Shown one piece after another: positions 5,075 to 64,000 of a DNA stretch of 64,000 nucleotides. The stretch is taken from the NCBI GenBank assembly GCA_001818695.1, contig MHJG01000009.1:309-64308 (forward strand). The letters are read 5' to 3'. The notes beneath the pieces were generated by a model that saw only the letters and a list, made by a program, of their open reading frames with translations, did not search any database and had not been told where the DNA came from. The stretch comes from Candidatus Harrisonbacteria bacterium RIFCSPHIGHO2_02_FULL_42_16. Its GTDB lineage: Bacteria > Patescibacteriota > Minisyncoccia > UBA6257 > 02-FULL-45-10c. The translations under genes and the position numbers were made by a program. The first letter of the stretch is position 1, and each line of letters begins with the position of its first letter.

Positions 5075-6181
5075 ATGAAAGTAATAATTTTAAAAGATAA
5101 TTTTCGCGATGGCTTAAACGCTGTGGAAAAAACAACAGCCGAAAACGTAAACTTGCCGATTTTAAAAAATGTTTTAATAAAAACATTTAATAATAGAATT
5201 CAAATATCAGCCACCAATTTAGAGTTAGCCGTTACAAAATTTATTTCCGGAAAAATAATTGAAGACGGAAGCATTACTGTCCCGTTATCGGCGCTACTTT
5301 CAATAATAAATAATTTAAACGCGGAAAGGGTAAATTTGGAGGTAAAAAATAATATCTTAACTTTAAAAACTGACAACTACGAAGCGATTATTCAAGGATT
5401 GCCGGAAGAAGAATTTCCAATTATTCCTAAAATAGAAAATACGGAAAATTATTTACGGCTGGATAATGAAATTCTTAAGGAAGGCCTTTTAAAAGTTATT
5501 AATGCCGTTCAGATTTCGGAATTAAGGCCGGAGCTTAGCGGTATCCTTCTGGATTTTCAAATAACCAATTTTAAATTAGCCGGAACGGATAGTTTCCGAT
5601 TAGCAGAAAAAACAATCAATGAAAATAATTTTAAATGCAATTTTTCTAAAGGATTTAAAATAATTATTCCTTTAAAAACAATCCAGGAATTTCTAAGAAT
5701 ACCAATTAGCGGAGAGATTACAATTTTAACCGACTTAAACCAGATATTATTTAAAAATGACGATTTGGAAATTATTTCCAGATTGATAAGCGGGAATTAT
5801 CCGGATTACGAACAAGTAATTCCCAAAACTTTGGAAAGCGAAGTAATTTTTGAAAGAGAGCAATTGCTAAGCGCGGTAAAATTAGTCAGCACTTTTAGCG
5901 GAAAAATAAACGATATAAAAATTAACGCGAAAGAAGGAAAAAAGTCGCTTGAAATTTATTCGGCAAACCAGTATTTGGGAGAAAATAAATATTTAGTGCC
6001 GGTGAAAATGAAAGGCGAAATTTTTAATCTATCGTTTAATTGGCGTTATTTTGTGGATGGATTAAAAAACTTTAACAACAGTGAGATTTTTCTTGGGGTT
6101 AGTGAAGGCAATCATCGGAGCATAATTAAAGACCCGAAAGACGCTTCGTATTTTTATATTTTAATGCCAATAAACCCTTAG
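5075..6181 (+). CDS. dnaN: DNA polymerase III beta sliding clamp
   Basis: 368-aa protein with three-domain clamp architecture, directly after dnaA. Confidence 0.9.
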   Translation: MKVIILKDNFRDGLNAVEKTTAENVNLPILKNVLIKTFNNRIQISATNLELAVTKFISGKIIEDGSITVPLSALLSIINNLNAERVNLEVKNNILTLKTDNYEAIIQGLPEEEFPIIPKIENTENYLRLDNEILKEGLLKVINAVQISELRPELSGILLDFQITNFKLAGTDSFRLAEKTINENNFKCNFSKGFKIIIPLKTIQEFLRIPISGEITILTDLNQILFKNDDLEIISRLISGNYPDYEQVIPKTLESEVIFEREQLLSAVKLVSTFSGKINDIKINAKEGKKSLEIYSANQYLGENKYLVPVKMKGEIFNLSFNWRYFVDGLKNFNNSEIFLGVSEGNHRSIIKDPKDASYFYILMPINP

Positions 6182-30729: not shown

Positions 30730-30801
30730 GTCCTCATAGTACAATGGATAGTACATAGCCCTCCGAAGGCTGAGATTGTGGTTCAATTCCACATGAGGAC
30801 A
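30730..30801 (+). tRNA. tRNA-Arg (anticodon CCG)
   Basis: Folded by hand. Acceptor GTCCTCA/TGAGGAC, D-arm GTAC-AATGGATA-GTAC, anticodon stem TAGCC/GGCTG with loop CTCCGAA, T-arm TGTGG-TTCAATT-CCACA. 72 nt, CCA not encoded. Confidence 0.8.
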
Positions 30802-42412: not shown

Positions 42413-42753
42413 GGGAGTGAAAAGCTTCGACAAATTATTTTCTATCAAATTAGCAAGCGGAGTGGCAACCTCATTAAAAGTTGCAAAACAATAAGTGCAA
42501 ACTTATTCAACAAACAGCCAGCTTTAGCTTACGCTTAACTGGCCATCGCTCAACTAAAGCTTGATAAGTTATTAAGCGGTGTCAAACATCAAGCTCTGCC
42601 TTGATACGCTGATATTCAAGGCGAAACTAATCAGCACAAAGTTTAAAGTGTTTTGTTAGATTATAGCTTTAAATTTTTCAAAATAATCTGACTAAGCTTG
42701 TAGAAAATTTGATAGTAATAATTTGGACGCGGATGCAATTTCCGCCACTTCCA
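42413..42753 (+). ncRNA. ssrA: tmRNA (transfer-messenger RNA)
   Basis: Starts 4 nt after the smpB stop. 5' GGGAGUG pairs with 3' CACUUCC (G3:U wobble as in tRNA-Ala), then discriminator A. T-arm GCGGA-UGCAAUU-UCCGC. Tag ORF GCA AAC UUA UUC AAC AAA CAG CCA GCU UUA GCU UAC GCU UAA (ANLFNKQPALAYA*) has the same ..AAUARGUNGCAAAC.. context as E. coli. Confidence 0.65.
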
Positions 42754-42825
42754 CTCCTTCGCTAAAACTACGGAGTGCGAGCACTACTTCAATAAAAAGT
42801 GCGAGCATTATTAGCTTTACCAAAA

Positions 42826-52256: not shown

Positions 52257-52328
52257 TAGTCCCGACGGGAATCGAACCCGTATTCCCACCGTGAAAGGGT
52301 GATGTCCTAGCCGTTAGACGACGAGACC
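52257..52328 (-). tRNA. tRNA-Glu (anticodon UUC)
   Basis: Minus strand GGTCTCG-TC-GTCT-AACGGCTA-GGAC-A-TCACC-CTTTCAC-GGTGG-GAATA-CGGGT-TCGATTC-CCCGT-CGGGACT-A. Anticodon loop CUUUCAC. 72 nt. The 3' end is 5 nt from the tsaD start. Confidence 0.75.
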
Positions 52329-54082: not shown

Positions 54083-54877
54083 ATGGCGTCAGTTGCGCAA
54101 ATAATCGCGACCATCGGGCCCGCGAGTAAAAATAAAAAAGCGATTAAAGAGATGATAAAACATCAAATGGATGCGGCGCGGCTTAATTTTTCCCACGGCA
54201 CTTATAAAGAACACGCTTATTACATAAAAACTATCCGGGCGGCCGCCAAAGAATTGAAAAGAAAGATTCTGATTATTCAGGATTTATCCGGGCCGCGGAC
54301 ACAGAGAGGCAAAGAACATTTTTTCAATAAAAAATCAAAGTCCTTGATAACCGCCAAAGATAAAAAGGATTTGCGGTTCGGATTGGAAAACGGCATTGAT
54401 TATGTCGCGATGTCTTATGTCGGCGGCGCGGAAGACATAAAATCCTTGCGGGCGCTGATGAGGTCATTTAAAAAAAATAAGCCGGTTATCGCTAAAATTG
54501 AACGGCGGGAAGCGGTAAAAAATATAGATGCCATTATTAAATCCGCGGACGCGATTATGGTGGCGCGCGGCGATTTAGGCAATGCTTTTCCGTTAGAAAA
54601 ACTGCCGTTTCTTCAGAAAATGATTATTCGGAAATGCAAAAAAGCGGAAAAGCCGGTGATTACCGCGACCCAAATGCTGCTCTCTATGGCGGAAAATCCG
54701 GAACCGACCCGCGCGGAAGTGGAGGATGTGGCGCAGGCAATTTTGGACGGTTCGGATGCAGTGATGCTTTCGGAAGAAACTGCTATCGGAAAATATCCGG
54801 CGGAAGCCGTGCGAGTGATGGAAAGGATTGTTTTGGAATCGGAAAAACACGAGCGATTTAAAATTCATAAATTATAA
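54083..54877 (+). CDS. minimal pyruvate kinase-like protein (TIM-barrel A domain only; no B-domain lid, no C-terminal domain)
   Basis: [33 protein letters not shown] motifs. Only 264 aa. Confidence 0.65.
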
Positions 54878-56492: not shown

Positions 56493-58154
56493 ATGCAAAC
56501 AAAAAAACCATCTTTTTTATTCTATGGCGTTTTGTTGGCGATTTTAGCATTGGCAGGCATTGGAAAAATTGATTTAATTGGCCGTAAATCGCCTTACTCT
56601 TTGCTTACCGCTCAAGTCGTGGACCTTGACACTTCTGGCGCGGAAGATATTAATATTGGCGCCCCTCCTTCTTCATCGACTGATTTAACCGCGAGAAAAT
56701 GGGAAATCGGAACCGCTAAAATTATTAAATGGGAATGGCAAGACCTTGAAGAAGGCAAACGGTTTGATGTTGTGCTGGAGCCGGTTACGGCCGAAGAAGC
56801 GGAGGTAATTGTTGTAATAGAGGAAAAGAAAAAAGATGATTTTCCGATAATTGAAGACAAACTGCCAATAATAATAGATGATACTAAAAACGATTTTCCG
56901 ATAATTGAAGACAAACTGCCAATAATAATAAATGACCTTAATGACAAGGCAGAAGAACTTATTAAGGAAATCTGCAAGGAAGAAAAGTCATTTTTAAATG
57001 TTATTAGCGGCGGTTTGCTTGGAATATCTAAATGCGTAATTAAAGACACTCCGGAAACAATTGAAAAAGAAAAGCAATTGGAAAAGATTCTTGAGGAACG
57101 GCAAGATAAGCTGATTGATTTGATTAAAACCGACCCGGAAAAAATATCGGAAATAACTAATTTAGAAAAAGAGCGCGAAAAACTGCCGGATAATCTTAAA
57201 GATTTAATTGAAAAAGAAGTAAAAATTAATGGAGTATTGGAAATCGTTGGAGAAAAGTTTTCCATAATCAGGACCGACACGCCTGCGGGGAAGAAAAGAA
57301 TATGGATTTATTTTACCATTTCTCCCAAACTTGCTCCCGGAAGTAAAATTGAGGTTGTCGGAAAAGAGATAGGCGGCAATATTATTGTTTCTGCTTATAA
57401 AATTATTACCGGTCCCGAGCCGGAGACGCCGCAGATAATCGGCCTTGCTCCGTTCGGCGAGGTATTAGCCGGAACGGAAACATTGATTCGCTGGGAAAAT
57501 ATCGGCGAAGTTACGGATATAGTAAATATCTATCTTGTGAAAGTCGGTAGGGATTACAAGAACTCAATAAAGACCCTTTTATATTTTGAAATATACAATA
57601 GCGGAGAGGCGCTTTTGGATAAGGCAGTTTGGAACAAAATCGACAAAATAGAATCCGGAGAAAATTATTATCTCGCCGTGGAATGCGCGCCGTCCGTTGC
57701 TTGCGAGGGCTCTTTCTATTTTTTTACCATTAAGCCGGCGTTGCAGACAATTCTTTCTACCAAAGCAATTTTTACCAAGACAAAAGAAGAGCACAGATTT
57801 ATAGCTGTGAATTTACCCGCTAACAAGGGCTTTGATTTGGAAGAAATTAAGGCCGCGCAGAAGAATCCAGAATTGGAGAAAAATTTAAAAGGATTTGATA
57901 TAGGATTTGGGCCCAGCGCGGTATTGTTTGGATTCGGTGAATATGAATCAGATGGCTCAGTATTATTTGGAGGTCATTGCGGACCGGAAGTTCTTGGTTT
58001 TCAGAGTTACGCGCCTAAATTATGCCCGTGGTCAAAGTGTATTAGTACGGATTACAGTACCGATGAAATTACTAATAATTTAAGTATGGATTACGCAATG
58101 CCCATTTGGGAAGAAATTCGCAAAACTTACGCTTGCGAAGATAAAAATAATTAG
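56493..58154 (+). CDS. large hypothetical secreted/membrane-anchored protein with internal 45-nt tandem repeats
   Basis: N-terminal TM. DDFPIIEDKLPIII(D/N)D repeated (DNA 56835-56935). No known domain. Confidence 0.5.
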   Translation: MQTKKPSFLFYGVLLAILALAGIGKIDLIGRKSPYSLLTAQVVDLDTSGAEDINIGAPPSSSTDLTARKWEIGTAKIIKWEWQDLEEGKRFDVVLEPVTAEEAEVIVVIEEKKKDDFPIIEDKLPIIIDDTKNDFPIIEDKLPIIINDLNDKAEELIKEICKEEKSFLNVISGGLLGISKCVIKDTPETIEKEKQLEKILEERQDKLIDLIKTDPEKISEITNLEKEREKLPDNLKDLIEKEVKINGVLEIVGEKFSIIRTDTPAGKKRIWIYFTISPKLAPGSKIEVVGKEIGGNIIVSAYKIITGPEPETPQIIGLAPFGEVLAGTETLIRWENIGEVTDIVNIYLVKVGRDYKNSIKTLLYFEIYNSGEALLDKAVWNKIDKIESGENYYLAVECAPSVACEGSFYFFTIKPALQTILSTKAIFTKTKEEHRFIAVNLPANKGFDLEEIKAAQKNPELEKNLKGFDIGFGPSAVLFGFGEYESDGSVLFGGHCGPEVLGFQSYAPKLCPWSKCISTDYSTDEITNNLSMDYAMPIWEEIRKTYACEDKNN

Positions 58155-58159
58155 AAATT

Positions 58160-58531
58160 ATGATTAAGTCACTTGCTAAAAAACCAATTGTTTTTATGGG
58201 CGCGCTATCGGCGGTTTTGTTCGCGTCGGCGGTTATTTGGGCTGTTTTTGCCGCGCAATTAGTTGCCGGTCAAACTGAAACGCCGGCGGATTTTAAAATC
58301 GGCGAATTTCCTCAAAAAAAGGACTCAGGCAAGGCAAGAGAAAAAATTACGCTTCCCAATAACGCGCCCTTTGGATTTTATCGCGTTAAAGTAATTAGCT
58401 ATGGCGCAACCGGAACGCCGATTGCTTCTATCGTCGGTCAGGAAATATTTTCCGTTACGCCGTCTGATGATAAACTCCCCGAGGATAAACGTTACTCCGA
58501 GGATAAACGTTACCGCGAGCCACTTAATTAA
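58160..58531 (+). CDS. hypothetical small membrane-anchored protein
   Basis: N-terminal TM. C-terminal duplicated PEDKRYSEDKRYRE. Confidence 0.4.
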   Translation: MIKSLAKKPIVFMGALSAVLFASAVIWAVFAAQLVAGQTETPADFKIGEFPQKKDSGKAREKITLPNNAPFGFYRVKVISYGATGTPIASIVGQEIFSVTPSDDKLPEDKRYSEDKRYREPLN

Positions 58532-58538
58532 AGAAAGA

Positions 58539-61235
58539 TTATTGATTTAGCGACCGCATTTTAATATCAAAGGCGGCGAGTTGGGATTTAGAGATTTCCA
58601 AGCCAGCGGAACGGTATTCCTGATAGCCGGATTTGAAGCAGGTTAGGTAGTATTTGCCCGGCGCCACCAGGAAATTGAATCTACCTTGTTCGTCGGTAGC
58701 TTTGGTGGCGAGCAGCATATTTTTTTCTTGAGCAAAAATTCTTACCACTGCCAGCGATAACGGCGCTTGGGTAGTTTGGTCCAGAACTTTTCCGAACGGT
58801 TTGATGAGGTGGAAAGCGAAATAAATTTTCAGCGCATCCAGGATAATATAAACGGCAAATATGGCGTAATTCAGCCAGGTCGGGACGATAATCGCGGCGG
58901 TTAAGCTGATAATCGTTCCGAACGCCAGCAGGTAAGGATTGATTAAGTCAATAAATCTTTTGAGTGCGTCCAGAATTTTTATCCGCCAGATGTATTTCAG
59001 GTCAAATTCTTTTTGAATCGGCGTAAGGAAAAATTCCAGGTTTAAAATCTGGTCCGGTGAAGCGATATTTACGGTTTCGCTTTGTAATGGCTGGTAGCCG
59101 TCTTTGATTATTTTGAGATAGTAATTTCCCGGCGTTATCGTCGCTTCAAACCGGCCTTCGCCGTCGGTTACCCGCGTATCTTTGAGTTTTTGATATTCAG
59201 CGTCATAGATATAAACTACTGCCGAGAGTATTGGCTTATTGCTTAGTTTATCAAAAACTATGCCCCAGGGTTTTCTTTTTCGGAATCGCAAAAATCCGAA
59301 TAAATAAAATCGCGACAGATTTATAAATTGTGTTATTTGGGACAGTAAAGAAGCGGCGGTAGCGCTACCAGTGGAAGCGGCTACGACAAGCGAGCTGGCG
59401 CCGACCGCGGAAACAGCGACCGAGGCCGGAATCGCTACCTCTTTTACGGTATTAACCACCACCGGATTGGAGCGCAGTTCTCGGGTGACTCTTACTGCTT
59501 CTTTGGTAATTTCTTTATTAACTTTTTTTATTGCTTCAGGAACATCAGTGAGTTTAGTAATTGTTCCGGTCGCGATTATATTTTGGATTATTCCACCTCC
59601 TCCACCTCCGCCCCCGCCTCCTCCACCGCCGATTGTCTGAATAATAGTAATGATAGTTGTTATAACATCTGTATCCGCTTCATTATTATCCGAAACGCTT
59701 AAACATCCCGGGTCGTTCGGATAGTCAATTTTTCCGTCTCCGTCATTATCTTTGCCGTCAGAACATTGAAATACGGGCGGTGGAATAATTAAACAATCCG
59801 CCGAACAGTTTAGCGAAGTTTCTCCTTTATCTACTTCGCAGATATTATTGCCGCAAATAGTTTGTTGGCTGGCTACGCATTTATTGTTTTTGCATAGAAA
59901 ATCGGACGGACAATCGGAATCTTTAGTACAGGACGGCGCCGCTGCGCAATCCGTTGTGCAATTTAAATTGGTTTCGTCAGCTTCACAGACAAGATTGCCG
60001 CAAACAGATTTAGTGATATCTTGCGGGCATTCTGATGTGTTTTCATCTAATTCGCAAATAATCAACGCTCCAAGAAAAGGTTTTTTTGGTGGCGGGATCG
60101 GGTCGGTTTCGTCATTATCTGAAGCGCCGCCCGAGCATCCCGGGTCAGCCTTATCAATCAGGCCGTCGCCGTCATTATCTTCGCCATCGGAGCATTGGAA
60201 ATTAATAATGGCAACACAATCCCCGCATAGCCGAGTTTCCCCAGATTCGCAGATATTATTGTTATTACAAGATAGAGGAATTATTATATCGGTCTCATCA
60301 TTGTCAGTAGCAGAAGAACATCCCGGGTCATTTGGATAATCAATTTTTCCGTCGCCGTCATTGTCTTTGTTATCGGAGCATTGATAAGTAGGTGGAGGAG
60401 GGCAATCTGTGGTGCAACCACCTCCTTTGTTATGCGCCAGTATTCCTTCCGCGAAATAATTTTCTGTGTTTGAAACATGGAAATTGTACACTGCTATATT
60501 TTTTTCTATCCGTTGAAAATTTATGATTTCATCTGGGACAAGTTCGTCGTTGTTTAGGAAGAAAATAACATTACCATTTTGGAGTTCTTTAACCCGTCTA
60601 TAACCGGTTGACGTATAAAGCGGATGTTCCGCAGTTACGAAGATTTTCCTGCCGCTTGCCGTAGAAATATCGTAATAATGGTCGGATAGCCGCTTAAACG
60701 TTCTCAAGACCGTTACTTCTCTGGATTTGTTTGCGCTTAAATCATAGCCGATTACGCTATCGCCAATAAGCACATCTTCTACATTTTTAGTTCCGGTAGG
60801 GATAAGTATTTTTGTTCCTGCCAAAAAACTACCGTCCCCGCCCCCTTCAACCGTACAAACATTAGAACTTACATTTACGGTAATGTTTATAGTGCCGGCG
60901 CCGGACATAGAGCCGGTATCAATGGTCGCCGAAGATTCGGAAAGGGAGCAAGAGCGGCCGGTGTAGCCGGTGGTATTGGGGTCAAAAGTTAAATCCCGCC
61001 GGTCTGCAGACCTAACTTTCAGGTATTGGCCGGCGGCCATAGTAACCGTAAAACTGTTGCCGCTAAAAGTAATTTGATTTAGGGTGCCGGCGCTTCCTTG
61101 CACATCTAAAAGAACGCCATTCACGCTAAGCTGAATTTCGCCGGAATTTAACAGTAAATCCGCTAAAGCATTTTGAAAATAAAAAAGAGCGAAAATTAGA
61201 ACAATTATCCCCAAAAATCGTTTTTTAAGTTTCAT
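58539..61235 (-). CDS. large surface protein: signal peptide, Hint/bacterial-intein-like (BIL) domain, TSP3-like Ca-binding Cys repeats, poly-Gly linker, TM segments, two CarboxypepD_reg-like domains
   Basis: Hint blocks SFLAGTKILIPTG...TAEHPLYT...YNFHVSNTENYFAEGILAHN (ends HN, no +1 nucleophile). DNDGDGKIDYPNDPGC repeats x3. G13 run. VTDGEGRF..PGNYYLKIIKDGYQ x2. Confidence 0.65.
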   Translation of the reverse strand: MKLKKRFLGIIVLIFALFYFQNALADLLLNSGEIQLSVNGVLLDVQGSAGTLNQITFSGNSFTVTMAAGQYLKVRSADRRDLTFDPNTTGYTGRSCSLSESSATIDTGSMSGAGTINITVNVSSNVCTVEGGGDGSFLAGTKILIPTGTKNVEDVLIGDSVIGYDLSANKSREVTVLRTFKRLSDHYYDISTASGRKIFVTAEHPLYTSTGYRRVKELQNGNVIFFLNNDELVPDEIINFQRIEKNIAVYNFHVSNTENYFAEGILAHNKGGGCTTDCPPPPTYQCSDNKDNDGDGKIDYPNDPGCSSATDNDETDIIIPLSCNNNNICESGETRLCGDCVAIINFQCSDGEDNDGDGLIDKADPGCSGGASDNDETDPIPPPKKPFLGALIICELDENTSECPQDITKSVCGNLVCEADETNLNCTTDCAAAPSCTKDSDCPSDFLCKNNKCVASQQTICGNNICEVDKGETSLNCSADCLIIPPPVFQCSDGKDNDGDGKIDYPNDPGCLSVSDNNEADTDVITTIITIIQTIGGGGGGGGGGGGGIIQNIIATGTITKLTDVPEAIKKVNKEITKEAVRVTRELRSNPVVVNTVKEVAIPASVAVSAVGASSLVVAASTGSATAASLLSQITQFINLSRFYLFGFLRFRKRKPWGIVFDKLSNKPILSAVVYIYDAEYQKLKDTRVTDGEGRFEATITPGNYYLKIIKDGYQPLQSETVNIASPDQILNLEFFLTPIQKEFDLKYIWRIKILDALKRFIDLINPYLLAFGTIISLTAAIIVPTWLNYAIFAVYIILDALKIYFAFHLIKPFGKVLDQTTQAPLSLAVVRIFAQEKNMLLATKATDEQGRFNFLVAPGKYYLTCFKSGYQEYRSAGLEISKSQLAAFDIKMRSLNQ
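59594..59632. repeat. 13 consecutive glycine codons (CCN/GGN homopolymeric-like tract) inside the BIL-domain protein gene
   Basis: ccacctcctccacctccgcccccgcctcctccaccgcc on the plus strand = G13 on the minus strand. Confidence 0.8.
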
Positions 61236-61304
61236 AGAAAATGATATAATTAACAATGGATTATTATGCCTGTCAAATTGTGATATTGAAATTATAACAT
61301 TACG

Positions 61305-63611
61305 ATGCCTCATCAGAAAATAAATTTGTTAAAACCGCGTTCGCTGAAAAACAGCCCCTTTCCATATTGGGCCAGAATTTTAGCGTTTATTTCATCGGCA
61401 ACGCTCGCGACTTTATTTATCGTTTCGGTTATCGCCGCCAATACCACTATCGGCAATAATATTGAAACCAGCGGCACTTTGACAGTGGGGGGCGCTACTT
61501 CAACTATTGCCACTGCTTTGGGGGTAGCCACCACTTCCCCGTGGGGCATTTTTTCAGTGGAAATGGGCACAGTGAATCCCTCTTTTGTCGTATCTAATAA
61601 CGGCAGTTCTACTCCTTCTTTTTGGATTGGCGGCGTTAATCAAAACGGTTATATCGGCATTGGCACCACTTCCCCCAATCAAGCGCTGACAGTTGTTGGG
61701 AATATTTACAATACCGGAATTATTGGAATAGGAACAACAACCACCGACAGGGCTTTGTCAGTCCATGGCAATGCTTTATTTTCCGGCACTGTTATGGTGG
61801 CTAATTTAATCGCTACCGGGACGTTGACTTTAAGCGGCACTGGCACGACAACTTATTCAGGGGCATTGGGAGTGGCGAGCAGTACTCCTTGGGGCACCTT
61901 ATCTGTAGAAATGGAAGTCAACAACCCTTCTTTTATAGTTTCTAATGCCGGCAGTTCCAGTCCTTCTTTATGGGTTGGCGGAGTCAATCAAAATGGTTAT
62001 ATTGGTATCGGCACTTCTACGCCTAATGAAGTGTTGACCGTAGCCGGAAACATTGCTAATTTAGCCGCCACTTCAACAATGAAGTTAAGAGGTAGCGCAA
62101 CTCTTGGCAATACCCCAACCTCAATTAAAGTTGCGGGTCGTTATGCTTACGTGATAGATCGTGGCACCAGTGATTTAAGAATTTTTGACGTGTCCAGCAC
62201 TACCCCGGCTTTTGCCGGTTCAATAGGTTTAGACCTTACCCCTCAAGATATATATATTTCCGGCCGATACGCTTATGTAGTAGATGGTGCCAGCGATGGC
62301 CTTAAAATTATTGATATTTCTAATCCAGCCGCTTTATCAATAATGAGTTCTACCAGTTTAGCAACAATTGGGGACGGGAGCAGTAATCCGTTGGGGATTT
62401 ATATTTCTGGCCGATATGCGTATGTGGTAGATAGTGGCGATGGTTATCTTAAAATTATTGATGTTTCTGATCCGGTTAGGCCATCAATCGTATCTATGTT
62501 GACGGCGGGTTCTGGACCGACGAGCGTATTTGTGTCCGGCCGTTACGCTTATGTGGCTGGTCAACAAAATAGTAGTAGTATAATTATAGATATATCCGAC
62601 CCATTTAATCCAAAAAATATGGGAAGCATCACTAGAACATCTCAGGGCATCAATCTTGACATTAAAATTTCGGGAAACTATGCCTATGTAAATGATAATC
62701 CGAATTTACGAATTATAGATGTTTCTGACCCAGCTAATTCGCAATCAATAGCAACTATATCTTTGGGCGTCAGCCCCACCTTATCTAATTTACAGGTATC
62801 CGGACGCTATGTTTATGTATTTAATTCTGGAGATGGTAAAAAAGAACTTATTGCCATTGACGTTTCTATACCGGATTCACCGGTGATTGTTTCCAGATTA
62901 AATATCGCCGTAGGGGGAACTTCTCCGTATTTATATGTTTCTGGTCGATATGCTTATGTAGCAAATGGCACCAATTTTTCAGTAATAGATATTTCCGGCA
63001 TAGAAACTACTTCTGCCATTATTCATTCTTTAGAGGCCGGCAATCTTCAGGTTAGGAGCGATGTTTTAGTTGGTAATCAGCTTACAGTAACCGGCGGATT
63101 AACTGTTGGGCAGGGCGGAATCTTATCCACTGGGCCATTGGCAGTCAGCGCCACCACTTCCAAAAGTGTTATTTTAGGCGGTTTGATAATCGGCACTTCT
63201 ACTCCGGCTACCACCTCGCCAAACTCGCTTGCTTTTTATCAGTCCGTTTTTTTGGTGGAAGCTACTTCTTCTGCGTCTATTCCATTTACTATCCGAGGCG
63301 CCGGCACCCAGTTAGGAAATTATTTGCAAATTCAAAGTTCTACCAATACCAGTCAGTTGGTGCTTAGCAGTTCTGGAAGGTTGGGTATCGGCACTTCTAC
63401 TCCGGCAACGGAATTAGCAATTTCTTCTTCTGCCACTACCACTATTTATCTTGATTCCTCCGTTACTACCAAAGGCAGTTGTATCCAATTAAAGTCAGCT
63501 ACCAGTTCGGCGGTTTATCATCTGTACATTGGCGCCAATGATGTGGCATCCACTACCTCTGACGGCCGGTCCGGCTTAATTCCGATATTTGAATTTGGCG
63601 CTTGCAAATAA
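61305..63611 (+). CDS. LVIVD-repeat beta-propeller surface protein with N-terminal TM and GIGTTSP (tail-fibre-like) repeats
   Basis: About 7 repeats of SGRYAYVVD..DGLKIIDISNP.. (LVIVD consensus). Upstream IGIGTT(S/T)PNxALTVxGNI repeats. Confidence 0.7.
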   Translation: MPHQKINLLKPRSLKNSPFPYWARILAFISSATLATLFIVSVIAANTTIGNNIETSGTLTVGGATSTIATALGVATTSPWGIFSVEMGTVNPSFVVSNNGSSTPSFWIGGVNQNGYIGIGTTSPNQALTVVGNIYNTGIIGIGTTTTDRALSVHGNALFSGTVMVANLIATGTLTLSGTGTTTYSGALGVASSTPWGTLSVEMEVNNPSFIVSNAGSSSPSLWVGGVNQNGYIGIGTSTPNEVLTVAGNIANLAATSTMKLRGSATLGNTPTSIKVAGRYAYVIDRGTSDLRIFDVSSTTPAFAGSIGLDLTPQDIYISGRYAYVVDGASDGLKIIDISNPAALSIMSSTSLATIGDGSSNPLGIYISGRYAYVVDSGDGYLKIIDVSDPVRPSIVSMLTAGSGPTSVFVSGRYAYVAGQQNSSSIIIDISDPFNPKNMGSITRTSQGINLDIKISGNYAYVNDNPNLRIIDVSDPANSQSIATISLGVSPTLSNLQVSGRYVYVFNSGDGKKELIAIDVSIPDSPVIVSRLNIAVGGTSPYLYVSGRYAYVANGTNFSVIDISGIETTSAIIHSLEAGNLQVRSDVLVGNQLTVTGGLTVGQGGILSTGPLAVSATTSKSVILGGLIIGTSTPATTSPNSLAFYQSVFLVEATSSASIPFTIRGAGTQLGNYLQIQSSTNTSQLVLSSSGRLGIGTSTPATELAISSSATTTIYLDSSVTTKGSCIQLKSATSSAVYHLYIGANDVASTTSDGRSGLIPIFEFGACK

Positions 63612-63640
63612 AAAATCCGGCGATATTTTATCGCCGGAAA

Positions 63641-64000
63641 TTACTCTGTTTTCCTTCTATTTTTTTTACAGTCCTCGTCGGTATTTTCTAAGGAATTTCT
63701 TTGAGCCACTCCATTATTATTGAAATATTCATCAGTGATAGTGGTATATAGCTTTAGATCGCCGGTTTCTATCATTTTGCAGTGGTCAAAGGTGTTGATA
63801 TTCCCGAATTCTTTTATTAAATTGACGCACTCGGTCATATTATAAAAATTTTGGCAATGCTTATCCGCAGAGACGCCTTTTTCTTTGTTCAAATACCCGT
63901 GTTCTTTTTTATAAACATCATCATAATTCGCATGAAGCAGTTCGTGGATGCCCGTATTGTAAACCTGCGCTTCAAAGGTATTTTGGTCCCAGTTGTATTT
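63641..64000 (-). CDS. 5' partial CDS: HExxH zinc metallopeptidase (continues beyond window)
   Basis: Minus-strand frame open to the window edge: ...NTGIHELLHANYDDVYKKEHGYLNKEKGV... contains HELLH. Confidence 0.45.
   Translation of the reverse strand, partial: KYNWDQNTFEAQVYNTGIHELLHANYDDVYKKEHGYLNKEKGVSADKHCQNFYNMTECVNLIKEFGNINTFDHCKMIETGDLKLYTTITDEYFNNNGVAQRNSLENTDEDCKKNRRKTE

Follow-up and report, generated by a model that had tools for sequence, protein, structure and literature searches.

A bacterial-intein-like Hint domain as a candidate autoprocessing element in a membrane-anchored surface protein of groundwater Candidatus Harrisonbacteria

What might a Hint domain with all of its catalytic residues in place be doing inside an exported, membrane-anchored protein of a Candidatus Harrisonbacteria bacterium? 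The question is raised by a region of five adjacent envelope-protein genes in a 64,000-nucleotide stretch of DNA (hereafter the window; contig MHJG01000009.1) from a groundwater member of this group of the Candidate Phyla Radiation (CPR, or Patescibacteria), the window proteins being identical to OGY64147-OGY64152 of the metagenome-assembled genome (MAG) RIFCSPHIGHO2_02_FULL_42_16. Little is known about host attachment or host sensing in CPR/Patescibacteria, and most of their large surface proteins lack annotation; bacterial-intein-like (BIL) domains, in turn, have been known in variable bacterial surface proteins since 2003. Based on sequence and on a structure model, we propose, with a probability of roughly 0.6, that a BIL-type HINT domain would autoprocess the exported protein, mainly by cleaving its tip from its stalk, and that the core of the region is the divergent pair formed by the Hint gene and the gene of an LVIVD-repeat protein. 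The Hint protein is a new BIL/HINT surface protein; nothing was found outside the known BIL framework, and no new system is claimed.

The assignment of the domain is carried by profile matches and by fold. The Hint stretch scored above the cut-offs of the Pfam models Intein_splicing (38.4 bits against 35.8) and PT-HINT (PF07591; 40.8 bits against 27.7, the best-scoring Hint-type Pfam model), and it also passed NCBIfam intein_Nterm and intein_Cterm (TIGR01443 intein_Cterm, 22 bits against 15.6). Its best sequence match in the PDB was the BIL domain of Clostridium thermocellum (2LWY, E 6.6e-11). An AlphaFold2 (AF2) model of the domain (25 sequences) reached a predicted local distance difference test score (pLDDT) of 93-98 over the domain, and its superposition on 2LWY gave a template modelling score of 0.89 and a root-mean-square deviation of 1.4 Å, at 27% identity in the structural alignment. 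The model also superposes on mini-inteins, on the Tetrahymena BIL2 domain and on the Hedgehog autoprocessing domain, and among the 68 PDB matches returned by Foldseek at E<=1e-3, the best 50 were all HINT-fold proteins (inteins, BIL, Hedgehog). The high PT-HINT score could be taken to mean that the domain belongs to a polymorphic toxin and serves to release a toxin, located C-terminally, into target cells. What lies downstream, however, is a Cys-rich stalk, transmembrane (TM) helices and CarboxypepD_reg domains, with no toxin domain in Pfam or NCBIfam scans; the C-terminus is the membrane anchor, and so not the deliverable part; and the neighbouring gene is not a small immunity-like gene but that of the convergent TM protein p2. 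With neither a toxin nor an immunity partner found, no PADLOC search having been made, we rejected this explanation as scarcely credible.

The catalytic set of the HINT domain is complete: the domain opens with Ser162 (SFLAGTKI), carries TAEH at residues 227-230 (Thr227-x-x-His230) and ends in ILAHN at residues 291-295 (His294-Asn295), after which comes Lys296. Searched in full with HMMER, 1.84 billion representatives yielded 8518 Hint relatives, and in the best 150 of these, residues were tallied over the Hint instances of near full length, of which there were 303-304 for each position. Position 1 was Cys in 285 instances and Ser in 12; block B had Thr in 290/304 and His in 296/304; the C-terminal end had the penultimate His in 293 and the terminal Asn in 298; and the residue at +1 was Lys in 253/304 (83%), usually followed by Gly. 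By its sequence, the query is thus predicted to be a Hint of an 'HNKGG' subfamily that is catalytically complete and has Ser, the rarer nucleophile, at position 1. The lack of a nucleophilic +1 residue separates BIL domains from inteins (PMC7664689), and the query does not qualify as a canonical class 1 intein, as its +1 residue is Lys and its host is a variable surface protein with an insert-less ortholog. Judged from sequence and model together, the domain is of BIL type. An earlier note on this DNA had made the same call, a Hint/BIL domain without a +1 nucleophile, and the profile scores, the match to 2LWY by sequence and fold, and Lys296 bear it out.

Two side observations concern the wider family. 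The strongest full-length matches to the Hint domain belong to a large family of the type of P0114, P0146 and P0148 (throughout, P-numbers such as P0263 designate proteins and L-numbers such as L015 contigs, as labelled in this analysis), whose members combine a signal peptide with three to five tandem Hints, all terminating in HNKGG(G)C, a single TM helix and a Tim44-like domain at the C-terminus. In addition, the Ser1 Hints (12/297) tend to lie in Cys-richer flanks, the median count per 80 flanking residues being 4 Cys versus 1 (Mann-Whitney p = 0.026). From this weak result on a small sample, it may be that Ser1 is suited to extracellular settings rich in disulfides.

Gene callers start the Hint gene at TTG 61256 (905 aa). 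An ATG at 61235 (Met27 of the open reading frame (ORF); 898 aa) precedes the signal peptide MKLKKRFLGIIVLIFALFYFQNALA; TTGACA and TATAAT hexamers occur immediately upstream of it, without the spacing of a promoter pair. Because of the signal peptide that follows this ATG and the hexamers upstream, the true start is likely ATG 61235, with a product of 898 aa, and from that start the Hint gene no longer overlaps the LVIVD gene. From the N- to the C-terminus, the protein consists of the signal peptide, a tip domain, the HINT domain, an acidic stalk, a tract of 13 Gly residues (Gly13), a TM segment, CarboxypepD_reg 1, a TM hairpin and CarboxypepD_reg 2. The tip domain is a near-orphan, shared by P0263 only (42% identity). 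With any of three alternative starts, the Hint protein had no exact entry in the protein collection, and it was absent from its own homology search as well; its population variants were therefore taken from contigs found via the neighbouring genes. A metagenome scan with the tip and Hint as query returned L016 as its sole match, which is a phage terminase intein: at L016 3501-6083, a phage-type terminase large subunit, unrelated to the window, is interrupted by a canonical intein (CFVAGTKV...); overlapping it in another frame is an ORF (5234-5857) with a motif that, by eye, resembles that of HNH endonucleases.

Downstream of the Hint domain, the stalk comprises about 250 aa with 26 Cys. It matches the NCBIfam 'acidic double-disulfide repeat' NF033662 in three stretches (53.3 bits against a cut-off of 41), and between the acidic repeats lie CGNxxCE...C..DC and knottin-like Cys modules. 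These had been described in the earlier note as TSP3 Ca-binding repeats; three DxDxDGxxDxxD-type repeats are indeed present, and their family is NF033662 rather than TSP_3, as Pfam TSP_3 (PF02412) gave no match at E<=10 on the isolated Cys-rich region, nor at E<=0.1 on the whole protein. The best solved match of the acidic repeat was weak, the C-rich domain of teneurin-4 (7PLP, E 0.014; local motif CxDxxDNDGDGLxDxxDPxC). Three Ca sites are seen in the crystal structure of that domain, and sites I and II match the thrombospondin T3 motif (PMC9058538). By this analogy, it is reasonable to suppose that the acidic repeat works like a T3 Ca-binding repeat. The Gly13 tract is encoded by mixed GGN codons; it lies at the coordinates given in Table 1, two nucleotides from where it had first been placed (59594-59632), and the length variation that had been anticipated for it was not found, as the tract is identical in all six independent contigs that cover it, from six assemblies (ERZ27254752, L006, L007, L008, L011 and L012).

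The C-terminal membrane module was as described before, with TM helices and two CarboxypepD_reg-like sandwiches: CarboxypepD_reg (PF13620) matched in two stretches (74.4 bits against 32.3, E 9e-21), and hydrophobic segments were found at residues 626-648 and 790-837. Positive charges follow TM1 (RFRKRK) and precede TM2 (a K/R-rich stretch), and by the positive-inside rule both sandwiches are probably cytoplasmic. The N-terminal part is taken to be extracytoplasmic because of the signal peptide and the 26 Cys of the stalk.

Taken together, these features suggest how the protein could be processed. After export, Ser162 would carry out an N-to-O acyl shift at Gly161-Ser162 and Asn295 would cyclise, so that processing would take place between Gly161 and Ser162 and/or between Asn295 and Lys296. 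With Lys at +1 instead of Cys, Ser or Thr, cleavage would be the main outcome, and a variable tip of about 11 kDa would be shed from the anchored stalk, or kept non-covalently; a minor ligated product, tip-GGGDG-KGGG-stalk, may also form. The stalk would be stiffened by Ca, with Gly13 as a hinge, in what would be a single-pass-type surface protein, and its partner would be a membrane-anchored protein with a seven-blade LVIVD propeller and fibre-like GIGTTSP modules.

Could the domain instead be a true splicing element, one that excises itself and joins tip to stalk, leaving a mature protein with the architecture of a Hint-less ortholog and being itself silent or selfish? The domain does sit in a Gly-rich linker, and in the ortholog P0263 the linker is continuous and Gly-rich at that place; the hypothetical junction GGGDG-KGGG resembles a natural linker; all splicing-relevant residues except +1 are present; and, as far as a title tells, Aranko et al. 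2013 (via PMC7664689) describe BIL trans-splicing 'without nucleophilic side chains'. Set against this, +1 is Lys both in the query and in 83% of family members, and BIL domains, which lack a +1 nucleophile, yield predominantly N- and C-cleaved products; one mutation suffices to make efficient splicers of them (PMC7664689). Splicing is further disfavoured by the absence of a homing endonuclease and by the many relatives with three to five tandem copies ending in HNKGG, an arrangement unlike that of selfish inteins. We therefore consider splicing, although it is the main rival, a doubtful explanation, and re-ligation of tip and stalk less likely than cutting. By analogy with Hedgehog, the domain could also be a conjugation device, in which the Ser162 ester at Gly161 would be resolved by an external nucleophile (an amine or hydroxyl of the host cell surface or of the bacterial wall itself), so that the hypervariable tip would become covalently attached in the way that Hedgehog attaches cholesterol, or captured by the epsilon-amine of the family-wide conserved Lys+1 as a branched isopeptide. 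Hedgehog-like transfer is reportedly also carried out by Tetrahymena BUBL, which is said to attach its ubiquitin-like domain. We regard conjugation as a long shot; if true, CPR epibionts would have a covalent chemistry of host attachment that has yet to be described for them.

We then turned to relatives of the Hint protein. Searches with the whole protein pick up homologs mainly through the acidic repeat, a repeat found widely in Myxococcota, Bradymonadia, Woesearchaeota and CPR. More telling is the C-terminal module, which is common to P0001, P0003, P0012, P0014, P0112 and P0263, at least one of them (P0001) annotated as Patescibacteria, with identities to the query of 54% for P0263 and 27-30% for the other five. 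P0001-type proteins and P0263 share with the query the order TM, RKRK-WG, CarboxypepD_reg, TM hairpin, CarboxypepD_reg, and most have acidic-repeat arrays, whereas the N-terminal and central regions all differ (cohesin/Big_5-like, a PE-rich linker and others). No Hint domain was present in the precomputed Pfam domains of P0001, P0003, P0012, P0014 and P0112, and none was visible in the sequence of P0263. The latter, a protein of 718 aa from another metagenome, has the tip and the C-terminal module, and neither Hint nor acidic repeats: after ...CSVAGGG it continues with a Gly/Ala and then a Pro/Glu linker, where the query reads ...CTVEGGGDG, Hint, KGGGC and acidic stalk.

The 3.1-kb contig that carries P0263 (L015) allows the neighbourhood to be compared. 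Its divergent upstream gene is an ortholog of the N-terminus of the LVIVD protein (40% identity, E 3e-21), and on the other side a convergent iPGM gene directly abuts P0263, p1 and p2 being absent. From this comparison, the sequences indicate that the Hint domain and the acidic stalk together have taken the place, in one lineage, of the variable middle of a scaffold that is otherwise conserved; the divergent Hint/LVIVD-type pairing is likewise kept in L015, the single case open to checking; and p1/p2 are either an insertion in the lineage of the window or a loss in the P0263 lineage. A profile search of the genome contigs with an alignment of the C-terminal module and a search with the degenerate pattern NPYLLAxGTII returned no match, and an alignment of seven sequences was too divergent for use; synteny could therefore be checked in one relative only, L015.

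Variation within the population was read from assembled contigs of at least six assemblies, which give no allele frequencies and in which some variants are possibly artefacts. About 20 near-identical contigs in several metagenome assemblies match the window, with one shared single-nucleotide polymorphism in the enolase gene and one in recG. In this otherwise near-clonal population, variation is piled up in a patch of p1 and in the region that encodes the tip domain, and the LVIVD protein and Gly13 are invariant. Codon 111 of the Hint protein (60981-60983) has three alleles, Asp in the window, Ala in L006 (D111A) and Tyr in P0147 (D111Y), and the P0147 fragment has in addition a 21-aa in-frame deletion in the tip domain; two further contigs end at 60960 and 60998. 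In the sibling MAG, no protein accession is attached to the locus tag lying between p2 and the LVIVD gene, which, going by accession numbering, fits a disrupted Hint copy. That BIL domains are associated with variable surface proteins, as the earlier note stated, fits what was found here, as the sole syntenic ortholog found has no Hint and the variants cluster in the adjoining tip domain.

In p1, an alternative allele carries 11 substitutions within 47 bp (57610-57656), 10/11 of them transitions, which give A373V, L374S, L375W, N381D, D384G and S388P; it is found in L006 and in P0128, the p1 of the sibling MAG A3I89. A third allele, on the fragment P0296, has E366Q and A378T. Contigs from three assemblies break at the patch (L003 and L004 end there and L007 begins there), and the P0296 fragment also stops there. 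Over about 8.6 kb around the patch on the same contig, one other differing site only was observed. Gene conversion or a balanced polymorphism could account for the patch. A diversity-generating retroelement was considered as its source and rejected: the 64-kb window holds no second copy and no reverse transcriptase motif (YxDD, long ORF), most of the variable sites are not A, runs of A do not vary, and 10/11 changes are transitions. The p1 54-bp repeat also varies, with two copies in the window and one in the independent P0133 and P0296. Overall, the variants in the tip domain and in the p1 patch, which is about the size of a loop, indicate sites that are surface-exposed, prone to selection or dispensable.

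The partner gene encodes a protein with an N-terminal TM anchor, and its assignment as an LVIVD propeller-type protein, made before on sequence, was confirmed by PF08309 (146.5 bits against 20.2, E 1.3e-43, seven stretches) and by seven copies that can also be seen at the DNA level, spaced 126-147 nt. G(I/V)(G/A)T(S/T)(S/T)(P/T) motifs occur five times, at residues 73, 118, 141, 234 and 694, within the duplicated module and once, as GIGTSTP, in the C-terminal region. These had been called tail-fibre-like IGIGTTSP repeats; the GIGT motifs are there, and for the tail-fibre label there is a single weak PHROG match (E 6e-4). The protein also has a partial match to TIGR04312, choice-of-anchor B, and no solved relative was detectable by sequence.

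Do the five genes then work together? Host attachment is a plausible role for surface proteins of a CPR bacterium by analogy, and all genes of the region could be envisaged as one co-functional host-attachment locus, made up of an adhesin, a propeller, a protease and a repeat protein. The cluster is real, although the earlier note had counted four consecutive genes and overlooked the 123-aa TM protein encoded at 58160-58531; its description of the products as secreted or membrane-anchored holds for all five, each of which has an N-terminal hydrophobic signal, anchor or lipobox-like sequence. The divergent Hint/LVIVD pairing is seen again in L015, and, according to passages in PMC11665869 and PMC10633639, CPR bacteria are thought to be epibionts, a presumed lifestyle that would suit such a locus. 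However, the genes follow each other in the strand order + + - + - and, with alternating strands, do not form one operon; p1 and p2 are ORFans that are absent from L015, where iPGM abuts the ortholog, and one population variant has stop codons in both; for the HExxH gene, the only homolog is a fragment; and the distant homologs P0001 and P0003 have unrelated genes as genomic neighbours. The idea of one conserved locus was thus given up, since only the Hint/LVIVD-type pairing recurs, and a single attachment locus seems to us unlikely. The proteins p1, p2 and the HExxH lipoprotein are ORFan envelope proteins specific to their lineage and do not demonstrably belong to one machine.

As for these three, p1 has a TM segment or signal anchor at residues 5-31, two 18-aa DFPIIEDKLPIII repeats, a Lys/Glu-rich region and a beta-rich C-terminal part; it has no Pfam, NCBIfam, PHROG or PDB match, and a homology search returned only p1 itself. 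No Pfam, NCBIfam or PHROG family matched p2. The HExxH gene encodes a putative lipoprotein (named 'Lipoprotein' in UniRef) of 235 aa at full length, taken from L001, with its N-terminus, MKRRLLLLTGILFALSANGC, beyond the window. It contains H135-E-L-L-H139 within GIHELLH, and in its single, fragmentary homolog P0145 the motif (HEALH, that is HExLH) and a TFDHCKMIETGDL block are kept. The product had been called an HExxH protease; the HELLH motif is present and is what the protease label derives from, with no Pfam, NCBIfam, PHROG or PDB sequence match and an AF2 model (pLDDT 40.6) that is unusable. The coordinates of all these features are collected in Table 1.

Table 1. Features of the five-gene region, in window coordinates (aa, amino acids of the encoded protein).
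Feature	Position	Strand	Description or basis
p1	56493..58154	+	553 aa, ORFan envelope protein
p1 54-bp tandem repeat, two copies of the 18-aa DFPIIEDKLPIII unit	56815-56935	+	DNA repeat
p1 polymorphism hot spot, aa 366-388	57588..57656	+	contig comparison
p2	58160..58531	+	123 aa, TM protein, start 5 bp downstream of p1
p2 C-terminal EDKRY repeat, 18-bp unit	58469-58519	+	DNA repeat
Hint-domain surface protein	58539..61313	-	924-codon ORF
C-terminal membrane module	58551..59438	-	Pfam and hydropathy
CarboxypepD_reg 2	58551-58796	-	Pfam
TM hairpin	58803-58943	-	hydropathy
CarboxypepD_reg 1	59019-59267	-	Pfam
TM1 region, then RFRKRKPWG	59283-59438	-	hydropathy
Gly13 tract, aa 562-574	59592..59630	-	mixed GGN codons, imperfect 9-bp periodicity
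Cys-rich acidic stalk	59673..60386	-	NF033662, three stretches; DNA repeats D4, D5, D7
Acidic Cys-flanked repeats, aa 310-342, 372-404, 515-547	60288-60386, 60102-60200, 59673-59771	-	DNDGDGxID...DPGC loops
HINT (BIL) domain, aa 162-295, 134 aa	60429..60830	-	Pfam, NCBIfam, PDB 2LWY, AF2
Tip domain, aa 52-161, about 110 aa	60831..61160	-	beta-rich, two Cys, ends GGGDG
Tip-domain variation hot spot	60960-61118	-	contig comparison
LVIVD protein	61305..63611	+	768 aa, divergent from Hint gene
Duplicated module of about 116 aa (348 nt) with GIGTTSP motifs	61575-61706, 61923-62054	+	DNA repeats
Seven-blade LVIVD beta-propeller (predicted)	about 62120-62975	+	PF08309 and DNA repeats
Palindromic terminator-like hairpin	63616..63638		10-bp stem, 6 GC pairs
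HELLH lipoprotein, last 119 of 235 codons	63641..64000	-	runs past window end

The hairpin listed in Table 1, between the convergent LVIVD and HExxH genes, is the sole convincing terminator-like hairpin of the region, in which counts of promoter-like and terminator-like sites were close to those of shuffled controls. Paralogs of the five genes were not found elsewhere in the 64-kb window, and the Rfam scan of the window had no match inside the five-gene region; the matches obtained, unrelated to the region, were a tmRNA at 42413-42756 (136 bits) and tRNAs at 30730-30801 and 52257-52328. The region is flanked by glycolysis genes (enolase, a short pyruvate kinase and iPGM) and by recG. The pyruvate kinase (54083-54877, PF00224 match) has 264 aa, which looks well below the usual size of this enzyme, and may be a truncated or a minimal CPR form. 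About 5 kb past the window end, downstream of recG and an ABC transporter, a gene at 13318-14307 of L005 encodes a large secreted protein of 946 aa with Laminin_G_3 and a weak Toxin_R_bind_N match (L005 and L001 are two readings of the same contig, ERZ27254752, which was counted once). Genes of large surface proteins thus recur along the genome and are not unique to the region.

Several observations weigh against the proposed explanation, both of the Hint domain and of the core pair, and have to be considered together. Ser1 is a minority nucleophile in the Hint family (12/297, 4%), and Ser is chemically less reactive than Cys. In L007, a 32-bp deletion (60965-60996) between GCCGGT direct repeats frameshifts the Hint gene. 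L017 has GAA-to-TAA stops in p1 (E225*, 57165) and p2 (E95*, 58442), both G-to-T, as well as three missense changes in the p2 TM helix, and is otherwise 100% identical; sequencing damage could account for its nonsense changes. The gene-disrupting variants of L007 and L017 may thus mean that the genes are dispensable, or may be assembly errors. The AF2 model of the tip domain is of low confidence (pLDDT 37-71), too poor for a fold search; the membrane topology of the Hint protein was read from hydropathy and charge alone; and L015, the one short contig on which the pairing is based, shows 168 aa of the LVIVD-type neighbour, without the LVIVD part. Finally, clean splicing or a structural role would fit the same data. 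The last of these would make the domain a catalytically dead or irrelevant rigid spacer and the locus ordinary, fast-evolving CPR surface-protein DNA, which the unusual Ser1 and the frameshift in L007 could be taken to favour. However, all catalytic positions are kept, yet the ortholog P0263 shows that the domain is dispensable for the architecture; the gene is intact in at least five independent contigs; and Ser1 is an accepted intein nucleophile (PMC7664689). An inactive domain is thus, in our judgement, very unlikely.

If autoprocessing by the Hint domain does take place, shedding of the tip, or its covalent transfer, would be a candidate step in the interaction between epibiont and host. 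The locus offers a testable case, with a HINT domain exactly between a population-variable tip and a putative Ca-binding stalk, and with a natural Hint-less ortholog. That ortholog, P0263, and the two hot spots of variation are the most useful leads. Exposure and selection would be most likely for the residues at the two micro-hotspots.

Each part of the protein pair can be set beside known systems. The LVIVD protein shares the seven LVIVD repeats of PF08309 proteins and differs from them in its flanking duplicated GIGTTSP modules. The acidic repeats have in common with NF033662, with thrombospondin type 3 repeats and with the teneurin C-rich domain a DxDxDGxxDxxD acidic loop bracketed by Cys; they differ from the teneurin domain in having two Cys per unit, where teneurin has six. 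As a side observation, the teneurin C-rich domain precedes a transthyretin-like (TTR) domain, and the acidic repeats of the query precede, beyond the TM helices, CarboxypepD_reg domains with weaker prealbumin- or transthyretin-like matches (SpaA, NOMO). A shared ancestry of the pairing of acidic repeat and TTR-like domain in the query and in teneurin is possible.

With regard to the Hint domain itself, the likeness to the PT-HINT of polymorphic toxins consists of a hidden Markov model score above the gathering threshold, while the query has no C-terminal toxin and no immunity gene, and its Hint lies near the mature N-terminus, upstream of a membrane anchor. The Hedgehog autoprocessing domain (1AT0) and Tetrahymena BUBL BIL2 (6Y75, 6TMM) share the HINT fold (Foldseek E ~1e-7 to 3e-10) and a position directly C-terminal to a small domain ending in Gly, which in Hedgehog is released as an activated (thio)ester and passed to a nucleophile (PMC7664689); in contrast to both, the query has neither a sterol-recognition region nor a ubiquitin-like N-extein, and it has an intein-like C-terminal HN. 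From the C. thermocellum BIL domain 2LWY, the query differs by Ser rather than Cys at position 1, by the conserved Lys at +1 followed by Gly (HNKGG), and by its host, a CPR membrane-anchored protein, known from sequence only, with an acidic disulfide stalk and a TM/CarboxypepD_reg module. The two nevertheless have the same HINT fold, with an N-terminal nucleophile, a block B TxxH, a C-terminal HN, no +1 nucleophile and no endonuclease, and both are sited in a non-conserved part of a secreted protein.

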